From sequence record PZ379179.1: DNA of 39,736 nucleotides; one strand, written 5' to 3'. Source of the DNA: a phage. Under the pieces are notes generated by a model. That model was not told the DNA's origin and did not search any database. It saw only the letters and a program-made list of their open reading frames with translations. Position numbers and translations under genes: made by a program. Shown here in pieces: positions 2,906 through 39,163 of this stretch. Positions within the stretch are counted from its first letter, which is position 1, and every line of letters begins with the position of its first letter.

Positions 2906-5587
2906 ATGAGCGTCATCTCTATTGACAAGCACGACTTCTCTGATGTATCGAACGCCATTGAGCCGTTTAACCTACTGGCTGACCACTACGGGCAAGACCT
3001 TGCAGTCAAACAGCTTCAGCTTGAGCACGAGGCATACACTGAAGGCGAGCGACGTTTCATCAAGAACCTTGAGAGACAGACTGAGCGAGGGGAACTGGCA
3101 GACAATCAGGTCGCCAAGCCTTTGATGCAGACTCTGGTCCCTAAGATTGCGCAAGCCGTCAAGGAGTGGCATGAAGGTCCAGACGGGAAGCTGTCAACCT
3201 CTCGTCCGAGCGTAGCGTTCACCATGTTGAGCACTGAAGAGAAGGCCGTAAAGGTCCGCTCTTTGCGCATCTCCTGCGAGTCTGCTGCGGTTATCATACT
3301 GAAGGTCATACTCTCCAAGCTGGTCAAGCCTGAAGGGATACCGATTACACCGATGGCCTCAGCGATAGGTCGCACACTTGAGGACGAAATCCGCTTCGGT
3401 CGCATCCGTGACAAGGAGAAAGAGCACTTCAAGAAGGCGATAGCTGATAACCTGAATAAGCGGGCCGGGGCGTCCTACAAGAAAGCCTACATGCAAGCGG
3501 TCGAGGCATCCATGCTGGAGCAAGGCCAACTGGAAGATGCGTGGGGGACTTGGAGTCCGACCGAGGCTGTCCACGTTGGAATCAAGATGCTGGAGATTGT
3601 CATCCAGTCCACACAACTGGTCGAGCTTAAGCGTTACGGTGCTGGCAATGCAGCGGCTGACGTTGAGATGGTCCACCTGTCAGACTTCTGGGTCAAGAAG
3701 ATGGCACAACGAGGATTCAGCCTTGCGGGTATAGCTCCAGTCTACCAGCCTTGCGTCGTTCCACCTAAGCCGTGGACTGGTGTCGTAGGCGGTGGGTACT
3801 GGGCCAAAGGACGCAGACCATTACCACTGATTCGCTTAGGGTCTAAGTCTGCGGTAGCACGCTACGAAGACGTGTATATGCCTGAAGTCTATGACGCTGT
3901 GAACATCATTCAGAATACACCTTGGAAAGTGAACAAGAAGGTTCTGGAAGTGGTGAACATGGTCGAGAAGCTGAACAACACGCCTATTGATGACATCCCT
4001 CAGATGGAACCGCTGAAGCCTGAGGACTATGCGGGTGAGACTGAAGAAGAACTCAAGGCATGGAAGAAGGCTGCTGCTGGTATCTATCGCCGCGAGAAGG
4101 CCAGACAGTCACGAAGATTGTCACTGAGCTTTATCGTCAACCAAGCGAACAAGTTCTCTCAGTTCAAGGCCATCTGGTTCCCGTATAACATGGACTGGCG
4201 CGGTCGCGTCTACGCTGTGCCGATGTTCAACCCTCAGGGTAACGACATGCAAAAGGGTCTTCTGACTCTGGCAGTCGGTAAGCCTATTGGTGCTGATGGT
4301 TTCAAATGGCTGAAGGTCCACGGTGCAAACTGCGCGGGTGTCGATAAAGTCACCTTCGAGGAGCGTATCAAGTGGGTGGAAGATAACCACGAAAACATCA
4401 TGGCTGCTGCCAAGGCACCGATGGATAGCATTGAGTGGTGGGGCAAGTTAGACTCTCCGTTCTGCTTCCTAGCGTTCTGCTTCGAGTATGCTGGCGTAAT
4501 GCACCACGGCTTGTCTTACTCCTGCTCGCTGCCGATAGCGTTCGATGGGTCCTGCTCTGGGATTCAGCACTTCAGCGCTATGCTTCGCGACCACATCGGT
4601 GGACATGCAGTAAACCTGACGCCATCCGGTAAGGTACAAGACATCTACCGAATTGTGTCTGACCGCATTGAGGAGCAGCTTAAAGTCCTGCTGATTAACG
4701 GTACTGACAACGAGATGGTCACTCACGAGGATAAGAAAACTGGTGAGATTACCGAACGTATCAAGCTGGGGACACGAGAGCTGGCCCGTCAGTGGCTGAC
4801 ATACGGTATGTCACGCAAGGTCACTAAGCGTTCAGTCATGACTCTGGCATACGGGTCGAAAGAGTACGGCTTCGCAGACCAAGTTTACGAGGACATCGTG
4901 ATGCCAGCGATTGACTCAGGGTATGGCGCTATGTTCACCGAGCCAAGCCAAGCGTCTCGATTCATGGCTAAGATGATTTGGGAAGCTGTGAGTGTGACCG
5001 TAGTTGCTGCGGTTGACGCGATGAAGTGGCTTCAAGGTGCTGCCAAGCTGCTGGCTGCTGAAGTGAAGGACAAGAAGACTGGCGAAATCCTGAAGCCATG
5101 CCTTCCGGTACACTGGGTAACACCTGATGGTTTCCCTGTCTGGCAGGAATACCGCAAGAAGGATACCACTCGTCTGAACCTGATGTTCTTAGGGTCATTC
5201 AACCTTCAGCCTACAGTCAACAAAGGAACGAAGAAAGAGCTTGACAAGCACAAGCAGGAGTCAGGCATTAGCCCTAACTTCGTCCACTCACAAGATGGTA
5301 GCCACCTGCGGAAGACTGTAGTCCACACTCACCGCAAGTATGGCGTGATGTCATTCGCAGTGATTCACGATAGCTTCGGGACCATCCCTGCTGACGCTGA
5401 GTATCTGTTCCGTGGTGTCCGTGAGACGATGGTCGAGACATACCGCGATAATGATGTGCTGCTTGACTTCTACGAGCAGTTCGAATACCAGCTTCATGAA
5501 AGTCAGCGCGACAAGTTGCCTGAGCTTCCGAAGAAAGGTAAACTGAATATCGAAGACATCTTGTCTTCAGACTTTGCATTCGCTTAA
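2906..5587 (+). CDS. Single-subunit DNA-directed RNA polymerase (T7 gene 1 homolog)
   Basis: 893 aa; collinear with recalled T7 RNAP, including AFDGSCSGIQHFSAMLRD, VIHDSFGTIPAD and the C-terminal DFAFA. AAGGA RBS 8 nt upstream. Confidence 0.97.
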   Translation: MSVISIDKHDFSDVSNAIEPFNLLADHYGQDLAVKQLQLEHEAYTEGERRFIKNLERQTERGELADNQVAKPLMQTLVPKIAQAVKEWHEGPDGKLSTSRPSVAFTMLSTEEKAVKVRSLRISCESAAVIILKVILSKLVKPEGIPITPMASAIGRTLEDEIRFGRIRDKEKEHFKKAIADNLNKRAGASYKKAYMQAVEASMLEQGQLEDAWGTWSPTEAVHVGIKMLEIVIQSTQLVELKRYGAGNAAADVEMVHLSDFWVKKMAQRGFSLAGIAPVYQPCVVPPKPWTGVVGGGYWAKGRRPLPLIRLGSKSAVARYEDVYMPEVYDAVNIIQNTPWKVNKKVLEVVNMVEKLNNTPIDDIPQMEPLKPEDYAGETEEELKAWKKAAAGIYRREKARQSRRLSLSFIVNQANKFSQFKAIWFPYNMDWRGRVYAVPMFNPQGNDMQKGLLTLAVGKPIGADGFKWLKVHGANCAGVDKVTFEERIKWVEDNHENIMAAAKAPMDSIEWWGKLDSPFCFLAFCFEYAGVMHHGLSYSCSLPIAFDGSCSGIQHFSAMLRDHIGGHAVNLTPSGKVQDIYRIVSDRIEEQLKVLLINGTDNEMVTHEDKKTGEITERIKLGTRELARQWLTYGMSRKVTKRSVMTLAYGSKEYGFADQVYEDIVMPAIDSGYGAMFTEPSQASRFMAKMIWEAVSVTVVAAVDAMKWLQGAAKLLAAEVKDKKTGEILKPCLPVHWVTPDGFPVWQEYRKKDTTRLNLMFLGSFNLQPTVNKGTKKELDKHKQESGISPNFVHSQDGSHLRKTVVHTHRKYGVMSFAVIHDSFGTIPADAEYLFRGVRETMVETYRDNDVLLDFYEQFEYQLHESQRDKLPELPKKGKLNIEDILSSDFAFA

Positions 5588-6678: not shown

Positions 6679-7706
6679 TGACAACTATCAAAACTAACCC
6701 TCACCGCGCTGTAGATTACTCTGAGTCTGGAATTAAGAAGGCACTGGAAGCAGCCGGGTCTCTGGAAGCTGAAGTGAAGTACGATGGTGTGCGCCTGAAC
6801 CTCCTGGTCCTGCGTGAAGGTGAGACCTACTGGCTTAGCCGCGAGTCGAAACCTCTACCAGCCTTGGAGTGGATGAACTCTGAGTTAGGTAATGCGTGGA
6901 CCCAAGCTGACTGGCGATGGTTCCTGCGTCAATCCGGCTACGAAGGTGTGGGCATGATGATTGATGGCGAGGTCATGGTCAAAGGTGTAGACTTCAACAC
7001 CTCCTCAGGTCTCATCCGAACGAAGTGGCTCAAGCCTAACAACGAGGAGTTCGCTGAATACTATTCGCCGGCGACTGGTGGAAAGAAGCTCCCGTTCTGG
7101 GGATCCCGGTCACGACTTCAGGTTGTGGTCTACGGTGTCATTGACATGACAACCATTGCTGACCCGAAAGCCGAAGGTCCTATCCATAGCGTAACCCGCC
7201 TGAAGGCCGAAGCTATCGTCCCTCTTCTCCAGAAATACTTCCCGGAAATCGACTGGGTTCTGTCTGAGAGTCATACAGTGTTCAACCTTGAGTCTCTTCG
7301 TGATTTGTACGAGGAGAAGCGAGCAGATGGACATGAAGGTCTGGTAGTCAAGGACCCACTGGGCAAATACAAGCGTGGTAAGAAGTCTGGTATGTGGAAG
7401 ATGAAGCCGAGTGAAGAGGCAGATGGTCACGTTGTTCGCCCGGTGTGGGGAACAGAAGGCCTAGCCAACGAAGGCATGGTCATCGGCTTTGACGTTATGC
7501 TCGAGAACGGGATGGAGGTCTCCGCAACTAACATTAGTCGCGCCCTTATGTCCGAGTTCACGGAGAACGTTAAGTCAGACCCTGACTACTACAAAGGGTG
7601 GGCTTGCCAGATTACCTACATGGAGGAGACACCAGATGGCTCATTGCGACACCCCTCGTTCTACCAGTGGCGTGGAACTGAGGATAATCCTACAGTCAAG
7701 ATTTAA
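6678..7706 (+). CDS. ATP-dependent DNA ligase (T7 gene 1.3 homolog)
   Basis: Adenylation motif KYDGVR; MTTIKTNP...SYWLSRESK...HEGLVVKDP...KRGKKSGMWKMKP...WACQITYMEETPDGSLRHPSF collinear with T7 ligase. Track ORF begins at 6663; the ATG at 6678 overlaps the gene 1.2 stop. Confidence 0.93.
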   Translation: MTTIKTNPHRAVDYSESGIKKALEAAGSLEAEVKYDGVRLNLLVLREGETYWLSRESKPLPALEWMNSELGNAWTQADWRWFLRQSGYEGVGMMIDGEVMVKGVDFNTSSGLIRTKWLKPNNEEFAEYYSPATGGKKLPFWGSRSRLQVVVYGVIDMTTIADPKAEGPIHSVTRLKAEAIVPLLQKYFPEIDWVLSESHTVFNLESLRDLYEEKRADGHEGLVVKDPLGKYKRGKKSGMWKMKPSEEADGHVVRPVWGTEGLANEGMVIGFDVMLENGMEVSATNISRALMSEFTENVKSDPDYYKGWACQITYMEETPDGSLRHPSFYQWRGTEDNPTVKI

Positions 7707-7707
7707 A

Positions 7708-8118
7708 GTGGACGAAAGGTCGGCCTCCGGGCTGGCACTCCACTCTGGACGAAAGGTAGGAAGTAAGAAGAAGTCCGGCTATTGGACGATAAACGTCAGG
7801 ACACCGTGGGGCCGAAAGCATCTACAGGTTCATAGGGTAATATGGGAGATGACACACGGTCCCATACCAGACGGCATGGAGATTGACCACATTGACCGGA
7901 ACCCTTCTAATAACAGGCTGTCCAACCTGCGACTGGTGACTCACTCCGAGAACAACCAGAACAAAGGACAGATGTCCACCAACACTACCGGAGAACGTCA
8001 CATCTCAAAGGTGAAAGGTCGAGAGCTTTACTGTATCAAGAAGGTGGTCAACGGAGAGCGCTTGGTCCTATATGCCAAGACCATAGCCGAGGCAGTAGCC
8101 TTAAGAGATTCATTATAA
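7708..8118 (+). CDS. HNH homing-type endonuclease (copy A)
   Basis: HNH core [46 protein letters not shown]. The track ORF starts inside the ligase gene; alignment with the paralog at 36668 puts the N-terminus at GTG 7708, directly after the ligase stop. No in-frame ATG is available. Confidence 0.7.
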   Translation: MDERSASGLALHSGRKVGSKKKSGYWTINVRTPWGRKHLQVHRVIWEMTHGPIPDGMEIDHIDRNPSNNRLSNLRLVTHSENNQNKGQMSTNTTGERHISKVKGRELYCIKKVVNGERLVLYAKTIAEAVALRDSL

Positions 8119-15638: not shown

Positions 15639-15920
15639 ATGCCTACCGGATGTATCGTCTGCGTGTCCCACAAGAGGAACCAAGATGGGTACTTCCGGTA
15701 CTCCATGGGAAGCTACAGGAAGGGCAACAAGTTCGCCTTCATGTTCCACCGATGGGTGTGGGAGCAGAAGCGCGGACCTATACCAAATGGCTACGAAATA
15801 GACCATTTGTGCTTGAACCGTGGGTGCTGCAACATAGAGCATCTACAGTGTATTCCAAAACGCGAACACGTCATTAAGACGAACCGTGAGCGCAAACTTG
15901 TTAAGAAGGAGTGTCACTAA
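15639..15920 (+). CDS. HNH endonuclease (T7 gene 5.3 position)
   Basis: 93 aa from the ATG at 15639 (the track ORF starts inside the polymerase gene); HNH with Cys ligands, HRWVWEQKRGPIPNGYEIDHLCLNRGCCNIEHLQ. Confidence 0.65.
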   Translation: MPTGCIVCVSHKRNQDGYFRYSMGSYRKGNKFAFMFHRWVWEQKRGPIPNGYEIDHLCLNRGCCNIEHLQCIPKREHVIKTNRERKLVKKECH

Positions 15921-36224: not shown

Positions 36225-36671
36225 ATGCTCGAATTTTTAAAGAGAGCGGCTCCGTGGTTACTTTCAGCAGTGATATTTGCTGGTGGCTACCACACCGCTA
36301 ACAATAAGTGGGAGGCTAAGGTCAATGCAGAATACACCTCGAATCTTAAGGCATCGGAGGATACAAGACTTGCTGTCCAAGCTGAAGTCAACAAAGTGTC
36401 CAAACGGTTTCAGGACGAAATGTCCTCGCTGGAAGGCAGCACTGATAGGATTATTGCTGACCTTCAGTCTGACAATAAGCGGTTGCGCATCCGAGTCAAA
36501 CCTACGAGTGGAACCACGCAAAGTGACGGTCGATGCGTCATTGATGGTTACGCCGAACTTGACGAACGAGATGCTAAACGTCTTATCGCCATCGGAGTGA
36601 AAGGAGACAAATGGATTAAGGCGCTTCAGGACACTGTGAGAGCCTTGCAGCAAGATAAGGAGGCCCAATGA
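36225..36671 (+). CDS. i-spanin, Rz-like (T7 gp18.5 homolog)
   Basis: 148 aa; MLEFLKRAAPWLL...LEGSTDRIIADLQSDNKRLRIRVK...LDERDAKRLIA...GDKWIKALQDTVRALQ matches T7 gp18.5; N-terminal TM segment. Confidence 0.9.
   Translation: MLEFLKRAAPWLLSAVIFAGGYHTANNKWEAKVNAEYTSNLKASEDTRLAVQAEVNKVSKRFQDEMSSLEGSTDRIIADLQSDNKRLRIRVKPTSGTTQSDGRCVIDGYAELDERDAKRLIAIGVKGDKWIKALQDTVRALQQDKEAQ
36325..36600 (+). CDS. o-spanin, Rz1-like lipoprotein embedded in the +1 frame of the i-spanin gene
   Basis: Track ORF 36277..36600 in an alternative frame inside gp18.5; contains a lipobox-like LTISGC after a hydrophobic stretch LIGLLLTFS. Start uncertain (first ATG at 36325). Confidence 0.45.
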   Translation: MQNTPRILRHRRIQDLLSKLKSTKCPNGFRTKCPRWKAALIGLLLTFSLTISGCASESNLRVEPRKVTVDASLMVTPNLTNEMLNVLSPSE

Positions 36672-37108
36672 TGCTCAGTGATTCGTATGTCTATGATGAG
36701 TCCAGTAAGTCTGGCCTGAAGTCCCTGCGTTCTGGTAAGGACGTGGGGTGTGTGGGAAACCACGGGTATTATCAGGTAGGAACTCGACGTCATGGACTCC
36801 TACTGGCCCATAGAGTCGTCTGGGAACTAACCCACGGTCCTATACCAGAAGGTATGGAGATTGACCATATTGACCGCTGCCGGACTAACAACAGGCTGGA
36901 CAACCTCCGGCTAGTTACTTCAAGCGAGAACTCCTGCAACACCTCAGGACATTCTGACTCAAAGACTGGAGTTAAGAACATATCGTTCCATCAGAATGGC
37001 TACGCTATCGAGGTCATGCGTAAGGGAGTCCGTATGCGAACAACACGTCCTACTTTAGAGGAGGCTATCTCTGTCCGGGACCTAATGCTGGAGGGACTCT
37101 ATGTCTAA
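36668..37108 (+). CDS. HNH homing-type endonuclease (copy B, paralog of 7708..8118)
   Basis: 146 aa; [13 protein letters not shown]...[41 protein letters not shown], about 60% identical to copy A across the core. Overlaps the gp18.5 stop and the terminase start. Confidence 0.8.
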
Positions 37109-38867
37109 GAAAACACCTGCTGAAAGACAGGCTGAAATGACCCAAAGGATGAGGGACGACTTCGTGTTCTTCATCTTCGTTCTCTGGAAAGCTCTTAGCC
37201 TTCCGGTTCCAACCCGCTGCCAGATAGATATGTGTAAGAAGCTGGCTGCTGGGGATAATCGCCGCTTCATCCTTCAGGCTTTCCGTGGTATTGGTAAGTC
37301 GTTTCTGACCTGTGGTTTCGTGGTCTGGAAGCTATGGAACAACCCAGACTTGAAGTTCATGATTGTGTCGGCCTCAAAGGAACGAGCTGATGCTAACTCC
37401 ATCTTCATCAAGCGAATCATCGACCTCATGCCTCAGCTTCAGGAACTCAAACCTAAGCAGGGACAGCGAGATGCGGTTATCAGCTTCGACGTTGGTCCCG
37501 CCAAGCCAGACCACTCACCTTCGGTTAAGTCCGTTGGTATCACTGGTCAGTTGACTGGTAGTCGTGCTGACATCCTGATTGCTGATGACGTGGAGGTTCC
37601 GAACAACTCAGCGACTCAGGCTGCCCGGGACCGTCTGTCAGAGCTTGTGAAAGAGTTCGACGCTATCCTGAAGCCTGGAGGTACAATCATCTATCTGGGT
37701 ACTCCTCAGAACGAGATGACCCTATACCGTGAGCTGGAAGGTCGTGGGTACACCACTACTATCTGGCCCGCTCGTTATCCACGCGACAGGAAGGACTGGC
37801 AGTCTTACGGCGACCGTCTGGCTCCTATGCTTCAGGCAGAGCTGGAAGAGGACCCTGAGTCCTTCTACTGGCGTCCGACTGATGAAGTACGCTTCGATGA
37901 TACGGACCTGAAGGAACGTGAGCTGTCCTACGGTAAAGCTGGCTTCGCTCTACAGTTCATGCTTAACCCTAACCTGAGTGATGCCGAGAAGTACCCTCTG
38001 AAGCTCCGTGACCTTATCGTAGCAGACTTGGACCCAGCGTCTAGCCCAATGGTCTACCAATGGCTTCCTAACCCTCAGAACAAGCGTGAGGACGTTCCTA
38101 ACGTTGGACTCATGGGTGACTCGTACCACACGTATCAGACTGTAGGCTCTGCCTTCAGCGCGTACACTCAGAAGATTCTGGTCATTGACCCTAGTGGTCG
38201 TGGTAAGGATGAGACTGGCTACGCTGTTCTGTACCAGCTCAACGGCTACATCTTCGTGATGGAAGCTGGTGGTATGCGCGGTGGGTATGAGGACTCTACG
38301 CTGGAAGCACTGGCTAAGATTGGTCGTAAGTGGAAGGTCAACGAATACGTCATTGAGGGTAACTTCGGTGATGGTATGTACCTTGAGCTATTCAAGCCTG
38401 TAGCGGCCCGTATACATCCTGCTGCTGTAACTGAAGTGAAGAGTAAGGGTCAGAAAGAACTCCGCATCTGTGACGTTCTGGAGCCTATCATGGGGTCTCA
38501 CCGACTTATCGTCAACGCTGCTGCTATCGTCCAAGACTACCAGTCGGCCTCTGATAAGGATGGTGTTCGTAACCCTATCTACTCTCTCTTCTACCAGATG
38601 ACACGTATCTCTCGTGAACGTGGAGCCTTGGCACACGATGACAGACTTGATGCTCTGGCTATCGGTGTACAGTTCTTCGTTGAGTCTATGGCTAAGGATG
38701 CCAACAAAGGCGAACGTGAAGTCACTGAGGAGTGGCTGGAGGAACAGATGGAGAACCCACGGAAAGGCTTCGAGTCCATCCACACTGAGTTCTGGGACAA
38801 TGGGGTCCGGGTGACTCACGATACGGACGACGAGCTGGGACTAGGGTCCTACGTTACGTTCCACTAG
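37101..38867 (+). CDS. Terminase large subunit / DNA maturation protein B (T7 gene 19 homolog)
   Basis: 588 aa; Walker A-like [10 protein letters not shown], ATPase and nuclease regions; position and size match T7 gp19. GGAGGGA RBS. Confidence 0.95.
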
Positions 38868-38961
38868 CTGAATGAATAACTATAGGCGAAAACTGAGTTA
38901 ATAAGCAGTTAGTAACCTATAGTTACTACCAGTCTAACCTACTGTTTTACAAGGAGTTTGG

Positions 38962-38984
38962 ACTTAACTATCACTATAGGGAAG
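38962..38984 (+). promoter_or_regulatory. Phage RNAP promoter near the right end (phiOR-like)
   Basis: CTTAACTATCACTATAGGGAAGA; flanked by degenerate promoter-like palindromes (AACTATAGGCG, AACCTATAGTTACT, TATTACTATAGTGAAT). Confidence 0.7.
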
Positions 38985-39163
38985 ACCCCCGGTTACTTAT
39001 AGTATTACTATAGTGAATATACATATGCAGACTTTATGCAAGACCTTAGGAGGCAGACTCCGAGTTCTTACCTAAGGCTTGCACCGATGGGAGGAGGTGA
39101 TATTAATCATAATACCTCCAATACAGATAGTCACAGACCATAGATACAGGAGGTATGTAGCAT

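Follow-up and report, generated by a model that had tools for sequence, protein, structure and literature searches.

Between the i-spanin gene 18.5 and the large terminase gene 19 of a T7-like phage lies an additional open reading frame for an HNH endonuclease, and its presence at this place raises the question of what kind of gene it is and by which route it arrived there. The window, that is, the whole stretch of phage DNA that was analysed (39,736 nucleotides; sequence record PZ379179.1), is a complete-length T7-like genome whose tested region most resembles that of K1F-like coliphages (genus Kayfunavirus; 94–97% nucleotide identity). Around the reading frame the gene order is T7-like, with tail fibre, holin (17.5), small terminase (18), 18.5, the HNH reading frame and large terminase (19) following each other. 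A first-pass annotation of the same DNA had described the reading frame as overlapping the 18.5 stop and the terminase start, had noted that this slot is empty in T7, and had proposed that the gene is a paralogue recently spread from a second copy at 7708. The reading frame is present in the sequence exactly as described, and in T7 nothing is annotated between 18.5/18.7 and 19; the origin of the gene is a different matter and is treated below. The three HNH genes of the window are referred to as HNH1, HNH2 and HNH3 in the order of their positions, HNH2 being the gene between 18.5 and 19 (Table 1).

Table 1. Positions of the features discussed, and nucleotide identity of Citrobacter phage CR8 to the window by region.
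Feature	Position	Strand	Remarks
Gene 18.5 (i-spanin, Rz-like)	36225..36671	+	Left neighbour of the HNH gene
o-Spanin frame embedded in gene 18.5	end 36600		Lipobox LTISGC
Shine-Dalgarno sequence AAGGAGG	36657..36663	+	End of gene 18.5; from the sequence and from alignment with phage 6925 and IMG/VR loci
HNH2, free-standing HNN-type HNH_3 endonuclease gene	36668..37108	+	146 aa, ATG start; from reading frame, Pfam, phrog and model
GGAGG, replacement ribosome-binding site for gene 19	37090..37094	+	Inside the 3' end of the HNH gene, 6 nt ahead of the gene 19 ATG
Gene 19 (large terminase, T7 type)	37101..38867	+	Right neighbour; Pfam PF22530, E 1.1e-37 (RNaseH-like domain)
Heavily recoded gene 19 5' end linked to the homing endonuclease gene (HEG)	37101..37156	+	Occurs in every HNH-carrying locus read
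Probable co-conversion tract in gene 19	37157..37400	+	92% to Caroctavirus CR8, against 75–81% downstream
HNH1, distant paralogue after the ligase gene	7708..8118	+	Separate post-ligase lineage; ATG 7636 is a possible true start
HNH3, more distant HNH_3 gene after the DNA polymerase gene	15639..15920	+	Pfam HNH_3, E 4.4e-19
CR8 identity, holin to 18.5			61–64%
CR8 identity, HNH gene			98.4%
CR8 identity, gene 19, first 56 nt			98.2%
CR8 identity, gene 19, next 244 nt (bases 57–300)			92%
CR8 identity, rest of gene 19			75–81%

The ATG start codon of HNH2 (36668–36670) overlaps the TGA stop codon of gene 18.5 (36669–36671) in the tetranucleotide ATGA at 36668–36671, and its TAA stop codon (37106–37108) falls within the first codons of gene 19, which starts with ATG at 37101. 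An alternative in-frame ATG at 36671 has a better spacing to the AAGGAGG sequence and is the start annotated in relatives. In the window AAGGAGG serves the HNH gene, whereas in HNH-less relatives it serves the TTG start of gene 19; the cassette takes the old Shine-Dalgarno sequence of gene 19 for HNH2 and brings GGAGG and an ATG for gene 19. GGAGG is kept in the HNH-deleted relatives Ro45lw, Penshu1 and R1. The final codons of gene 18.5 are unlike those of HNH-less relatives. Mosaicism is a feature of the region as a whole, and the two halves of gp18.5, for example, swap alleles independently of each other.

No promoter motif was found between 33289 and 38877, and the HNH gene, having no promoter of its own, is covered by the late transcript that the phage promoter at about 33289 initiates. 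A search for Rfam families across the whole window gave none, and the search of 36400–37400 for terminal inverted repeats or a target-site duplication gave only short repeats at chance level, by which a transposable element or insertion sequence was ruled out. A gene encoded in an intron, of the I-HmuI type, or another RNA element was likewise rejected, as there is no Rfam family and the reading frame overlaps two complete reading frames. With neither an RNA family nor flanking repeats nor its own promoter, HNH2 is therefore a free-standing late gene that is translationally coupled to 18.5 and 19.

The HNH2 protein matched the Pfam family HNH_3 (PF13392) with 75.9 bits (cut-off 24.8, E 1.9e-21), no other Pfam family being reported at E ≤ 0.01, and it matched phrog_99, 'HNH endonuclease', with an E value of 1.7e-45. 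The HNN-type His-Me finger residues D66, H67, N79 and N91 are intact and invariant in an alignment of 28 sequences. An AlphaFold model obtained from this alignment (pLDDT 90.7) has three parts: N-terminal beta strands, a beta-beta-alpha-metal core at about residues 60–91 (strands 63–67 and 80–84, helix 85–91), and a C-terminal AP2-like sheet and helix at 105–141, in which a three-stranded sheet (strands 105–127) is packed on helix 130–141. The sole significant match among solved structures was the homing endonuclease I-HmuI (PDB 1U3E; phmmer E 0.003, Foldseek E 2.3e-4) from Bacillus phage SPO1; in both proteins a DNA-contact region of beta strands at the N-terminus precedes an HNN-type beta-beta-alpha-metal core. 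The I-HmuI gene is part of a group I intron, and the enzyme nicks a single strand and has helical and helix-turn-helix modules for DNA binding at its C-terminal end, whereas HNH2 is a free-standing gene and its product ends, according to the model, in the AP2-like sheet and helix. For this C-terminus there were weak Foldseek matches to the AP2 domain 7ET4 (probability 0.57) and to a Toxoplasma mitoribosomal chain (probability 0.95), the latter being, we assume, AP2-like as well, and it aligns with the HNH protein P0016, which bears a Pfam AP2 domain. As the isolated N- and C-terminal pieces matched no Pfam family, AP2 included, even at E 10, the AP2-like assignment of the tail is one based on fold and alignment. 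HNH2 is predicted to consist of an HNN-variant HNH nuclease core and a C-terminal AP2-like DNA-binding domain. Compared with the copy of an Enterobacter phage, the gene has 24 synonymous and 7 non-synonymous differences, compared with the CR8 copy 7 synonymous and 0 non-synonymous differences, and dN/dS is about 0.08–0.1; the HNH2 protein is intact and under purifying selection.

The distribution of the gene was determined mostly in the GenBank phage collection, because IMG/VR holds few relatives (16 gp18.5 loci, only 4 of them with an HNH gene of at least 62% identity). Some 252 phage records matched the region when at least 80% identity was required. The HNH2 family is present in 55 phage records, in all of them at the 18.5/19 junction (under or beside the Rz and terminase annotations), with a protein identity to HNH2 of 92–100% in 40 records and of 62–67% in the other 15. 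Most close relatives are without HNH2, many of them at 94–97% identity, and the naive state is the commoner one. When junctions were compared by end-free pairwise alignment, phage 6925, which has no HNH gene and flanks 97.5% identical to those of the window, lost homology at 36663, just after AAGGAGG, and regained it near 37152. HNH2 is thus not a clean insertion, since the swap extends to the final codons of 18.5 and to about 18 codons at the beginning of gene 19.

Junction sequences were read at about 25 loci, and elsewhere the linkage is one of counts (67 versus 55, see below) and annotation strings. Naive genomes read AAGGAGGTGAnGCATTGAGTAAAGACTTAGTGGCGCGTCAGGCGCTAATGACTGC... at the beginning of gene 19, with a TTG start and the protein sequence SKDLVARQALMTARMKAD, whereas occupied genomes read ATGTCTAAGAAAACACCTGCTGAAAGACAGGCTGAAATGACC... 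and have the ATG start of gene 19. The two versions differ by many synonymous and non-synonymous changes and by one codon in length. The recoded version was present in all nine distinct HNH-carrying genomes that were read, namely the window and eight related phages (Zappy, 101120B1-2, CR8, CR44b, two IMG/VR contigs, PRF-SP2 and RDN8.1), and the naive version in 14 of 14 ordinary empty-site loci from 13 distinct contigs. From this linkage, the recoded gene 19 start is a putative cleavage-resistant version of the nuclease target.

With a 56-nt probe, the recoded gene 19 start was detected in 67 phage records, 12 more than the 55 with the HNH gene, and four of the additional ones (Ro45lw, Penshu1, R1 and IME177) were read. 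In Ro45lw the last 53 nt of the HNH reading frame are left directly after 18.5, in Penshu1 and R1 about 30 nt of the HNH 3' end are left, and in IME177 none; all four of these HNH-less genomes retain the recoded gene 19 start. Because what is left corresponds to coding sequence from the 3' end of the nuclease gene, deletion is the parsimonious direction of change. The 18.5/19 locus exists in three states: naive, occupied by one of two allele classes, and emptied and presumably resistant.

Where the cassette of the window has its closest counterpart is evident from Citrobacter phage CR8 (genus Caroctavirus), whose gene 3.8A lies in the same slot and encodes a protein 100% identical to HNH2; the copies of Zappy, 101120B1-2, PRF-SP and RDN8.1 are 98–99% identical. 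At the very start of the HNH gene, the nucleotide identity between CR8 and the window goes up from about 62% to 98%, and on the other side it remains elevated into gene 19 (Table 1). Salmonella phage PRF-SP2 compared with the window is 65–70% identical in 18.5 and 98.2% in the HNH gene, and RDN8.1 displays a similar contrast. In CR44b-type phages the flanks are 95–98% identical to the window and the stretch 36480–37050 is only about 60% identical. CR44b and Hafnia phage Ca carry in the slot a second HNH allele class, which is only about 64–67% identical, has a GTG start, and shares with the allele of the window only the last 50 nt or so and the recoded gene 19 start. The window combines a CR8-type HNH allele with a Kayfunavirus backbone and a rare post-ligase HNH gene. 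As judged from these identity contrasts, HNH2 moves between related T7-like phages, including phages of different genera, and does so together with the recoded terminase start.

HNH2 is already annotated and published. The records of CR8 and CR44b list it under '3.8A predicted homing endonuclease', and dozens of Kayfunavirus records under 'HNH homing endonuclease'. CR8's label '3.8A' derives from a similarity of the core to the HNH endonuclease of T7 gene 3.8, which is 47% identical to HNH2 over a nuclease core of 60 residues but is located before gene 4, is shorter (121 aa) and resembles HNH2 in the core only. In Hafnia phage Ca the gene between the 18.5 homologue and the large terminase gene has been described with overlapping start and stop codons (PMC8861465), arranged at 18.5 and at gene 19 as they are in the window, and a spontaneous variant with a 397-bp deletion in the HNH gene dominates small plaques (PMC8861465). 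HEGs have been reported to cluster beside terminase genes and to bound exchange tracts (PMC10448857). The Xanthomonas phages Xp10, OP1 and Xop411 carry multiple HNN-AP2 genes per genome (PMC2248197); their products resemble HNH2 in the motifs HRxxW, DH, NNR/DNR, NLR and EN and in the layout of nuclease plus AP2, and several paralogues occur in each small genome in intact, truncated and remnant states, which have been interpreted as gain with later decay (PMC2248197). These phages differ from the window in phage group and insertion sites, and in HNH2 the AP2-like call is one of alignment and predicted fold.

Together, these data make it probable (about 0.8 by our estimate) that HNH2 is a free-standing homing-type endonuclease gene specific for the 18.5/19 junction of K1F-like and related T7-like phages, and the part of the first-pass annotation that placed a homing-type HNH nuclease gene in a slot empty in T7 is supported. 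During co-infection the nuclease would nick or cut the naive allele, either within the first 55 nt or so of gene 19 or adjacent to them, with cleavage on the naive junction predicted within or next to TTGAGTAAAGACTTAGTGGCGCGTCAGGCGCTAATGACTGC. Repair of the break from the occupied genome would then copy in the HNH gene together with the resistant gene 19 start, and the repair would leave a co-conversion tract reaching a few hundred bases into gene 19. While the linkage to the site, the step in identity at the HNH start and the tract of raised identity are read directly from the alignments, it is cleavage and its position that we infer from them. The route proposed for HNH2 is the one that Seg and Mob endonucleases take in phage T4, where it has been demonstrated experimentally; the mechanism in HNH2 is derived from comparative data. 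Seg and Mob genes are free-standing between essential genes, the allele lacking the HEG is cut near, and not at, the insertion point, flanking markers are co-converted, and the occupied allele is resistant through sequence differences. Seg proteins are of the GIY-YIG type, and the free-standing homing endonucleases of T4 belong mostly to nuclease families other than that of HNH2. A literature search retrieved no published cleavage or homing assay for HNH2 or its clade.

Two elements of this mechanism could have simpler origins. The recoded gene 19 start could simply have been inherited from the donor lineage, with no selection for resistance, and the sharp left boundary and long right tract in the comparison with CR8 could result from ordinary mosaic recombination at gene boundaries. 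That the cassette is purely selfish is a further reading, and the deletion in Hafnia phage Ca, linked as it is to small plaques, suggests otherwise (PMC8861465).

A reading that overlaps the homing explanation and does not exclude it is that the mobile element is kept for a benefit, either better expression of the terminase or exclusion by the nuclease of markers of co-infecting naive phages. The change of the gene 19 start from TTG to ATG with a new ribosome-binding site would agree with such a benefit, as would the purifying selection on the nuclease, the retention of the ATG allele and of the GGAGG remnant in HNH-deleted relatives, and the association with plaque size in Hafnia phage Ca (PMC8861465); as the naive arrangement is nevertheless commoner among relatives, we give a benefit limited credence. 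Similarly tentative is the idea that the cassette might act as a three-part module, composed of the nuclease, the ribosome-binding site with its ATG, and the recoded terminase N-terminus, which would rewire the translation of the packaging enzyme or alter the enzyme itself and would be kept partly by its phenotype or by the exclusion of naive competitors. If this were true, packaging efficiency and plaque phenotype would shift whenever the cassette was gained, lost or exchanged for another allele, and the plaque-size polymorphism of the Hafnia phage Ca deletion variant would fit (PMC8861465).

More doubtful is that HNH2 is an inactive relic, with a reading frame that is intact by chance or through recent arrival and a dead enzyme that spread as a passenger by ordinary recombination. 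Mosaicism is general in the region, as in the gp18.5 halves that switch alleles, which is compatible with such a passenger; yet the catalytic residues are invariant across the family and dN/dS is about 0.1 or less, the cassette has diverged far less than its flanks in several backgrounds, and the insertion site is the same in 55 of 55 records, and we consider a relic improbable.

That HNH2 could be an accessory nuclease of the terminase, similar to HK97 gp74, an HNH protein that helps the large terminase to cut DNA in packaging, seems more improbable still. To our knowledge, T7 packages its DNA without an HNH partner protein, and the terminase of the window is of the T7 type (PF22530) in a gene order that is that of T7 and not of the HK97 type. 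The HNH gene does abut gene 19 and is translationally coupled to it, but its family is HNH_3 (PF13392) with an AP2-like tail and no other Pfam family, and most close relatives, among them the one that is 97.5% identical, do without the gene and are viable isolates. The dominance of the deletion variant in small plaques of Hafnia phage Ca, whose authors raised the idea of a helper (PMC8861465), is equally well explained by damage to the ribosome-binding site or to the coupling of gene 19, since both signals sit in the HNH 3' end.

The remaining reading is the one from the first-pass annotation, in which the copy at 36668 would be the copy at 7708 spread to a second site in this genome or in a very recent ancestor. 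HNH1 and HNH2 are indeed homologous from end to end (45% identity over 143 aa, E 3e-36; 45–50% over the whole protein), have the same three-part layout, both belong to phrog_99, and are among each other's closest non-family relatives by raw identity (46%). The proposed paralogy holds in this respect, while the identity of about 60% given for the core was imprecise, as the 41-residue core HRVVWEL...SEN is identical at 33 of 41 positions (80%). At the nucleotide level, however, a codon alignment of the two genes has only 55% identity, with 42% at third positions and a longest common run of 14 nt, and dS is about 1.5, i.e., saturated. Near-identical orthologues of each copy exist at the same sites in other phages. 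The 18.5/19 clade is diverse down to 59% identity and lies directly upstream of gene 19 in each locus read. For HNH1, RDN8.1 and TH16 alone have orthologues of 91% identity, located at the same post-ligase site, and the next relatives, at 48–52%, include one in the same post-ligase position of Teseptimavirus pO111 (52%), so that the post-ligase clade spans two genera. In a neighbour-joining tree (48 taxa, capped Kimura distance, 300 bootstraps) the 18.5/19 clade received 91% and the post-ligase clade 74% bootstrap support, whereas sisterhood of the two received 10%. Given this divergence, the same-site orthologues elsewhere and the two clades of the tree, HNH1 and HNH2 belong to old site-specific lineages and reached the genome separately by exchange between phages, and a recent intragenomic duplication is effectively refuted.

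As to the post-ligase site itself, it has a 376-bp internal deletion in phage Vec13, which leaves the first 11 and the last 24 or so nt of the HNH1 reading frame, suggesting that this site may pass through a life cycle resembling that of the 18.5/19 site. HNH1 is independent of HNH2 as an element; its lineage is a sister or cousin one, with the ligase/1.6 junction as the presumed target. The first-pass annotation had considered that both sites might be occupied in all relatives, as ancient fixed genes would be; both are polymorphic, which fits mobile elements. HNH3, which had been called unrelated, also belongs to HNH_3 and aligns with 35% identity over 62 aa, although it falls into phrog_1872. 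No similarity between HNH3 and T7 gp5.3 was detectable, so the label '5.3' is positional only and HNH3 was ruled out as an orthologue of gp5.3. A tblastn search of the window with all three proteins gave no fourth HNH_3 copy, and the window holds exactly three.

The overall picture, in which HNH2 is regarded as a homing-type element of the 18.5/19 junction, will not surprise specialists. For annotation, HNH2 is best named an HNH homing endonuclease of the CR8 3.8A type and not a paralogue born in this genome. Added here are the description of a three-state locus, the signal of transfer across genera and the prediction of the target site, which would lie in the first 55 nt or so of naive gene 19. 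As such elements bias the inheritance of markers and adjoin an essential gene, this prediction could help in the engineering or crossing of K1F-like therapeutic phages. The 18.5/19 locus, with its naive, occupied and emptied states, is a clean small example of the life cycle of a homing element in T7-like phages.

The post-ligase HNH gene, a distant paralogue of the HNH_3 homing-type nuclease gene at 36668-37108, probably starts at ATG 7636 (window 7622-7710). The motif GGAGGAG lies 7 nt upstream of this ATG, from which the reading frame overlaps the 3' end of the ligase gene by 71 nt in a different frame, and the database gene call for the related protein P0015 begins at the equivalent upstream ATG. 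No ribosome-binding site precedes the alternative start, GTG 7708, a codon that is GTA in RDN8.1. Escherichia phage Vec13 lacks 376 bp inside this gene (corresponding to window 7719-8094) and retains the first 11 nt and the last approximately 24 nt of the ORF, a deletion footprint and the counterpart of those at the 18.5/19 site.

The site of the HNH gene following the DNA polymerase gene (window 15639-15920) is also polymorphic: coverage of the region is no more than 87-90% in many relatives, and in some the polymerase gene is split or followed by HNH genes. Similarity between the 15639-15920 product and T7 gp5.3 was not detectable, whereas the 36668 gene is, in its nuclease core, 47% identical to T7 gp3.8.

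The i-spanin gene 18.5 (window 36225-36667) is a mosaic when relatives are compared, its 5' and 3' parts alternating independently between levels of roughly 65% and roughly 95% identity; relative to the window, identity is 95% and then 60% in CR44b, and 67% and then 83% in RDN8.1.

GenBank OR786095.1, "Staphylococcus phage MBBL139" with S. aureus as stated host, is a Kayfunavirus (88% identical) and bears a 36668-type HNH gene (98.6% protein identity); it looks like a case of a wrong host label or a mixed sample. The Enterobacter phage records OP272490-OP272493 and PQ039555 show the HNH and terminase genes in 3-5 pieces, a fragmentation that probably stems from assembly frameshift errors and not from real decay.

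Genes found in relatives around the large terminase gene (gene 19)
Feature	Locus	Coordinates	Position
Small ORF, 53-54 aa	L007 (IMG/VR contig)	about 2940-3100	18.5/19 slot
Small ORF, 53-54 aa	L012 (IMG/VR contig)	about 2940-3110	18.5/19 slot
Further HNH_3 gene	L002 (Zappy)	3969-4148	just downstream of gene 19
Further HNH_3 gene	L010 (39,093-bp IMG/VR contig)	4814-5188	just downstream of gene 19
Further HNH_3 gene	L021 (CR44b)	5169-5351	just downstream of gene 19

Unlike Zappy, L010 and CR44b, the window has no HNH_3 gene immediately after gene 19. A 140-nt stretch downstream of that gene (window 38877-39016) carries four phage-promoter-like sites of the TCACTATAGG type, two per strand, the minus-strand pair being unexpected given the unidirectional transcription of the genome. 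The 18.5/19 slot itself is filled by unrelated small ORFs in the Kayfunavirus-like contigs L007 and L012, both of which keep the naive gene 19 start, that of the HNH-less allele, and the junction therefore also takes non-nuclease cargo.
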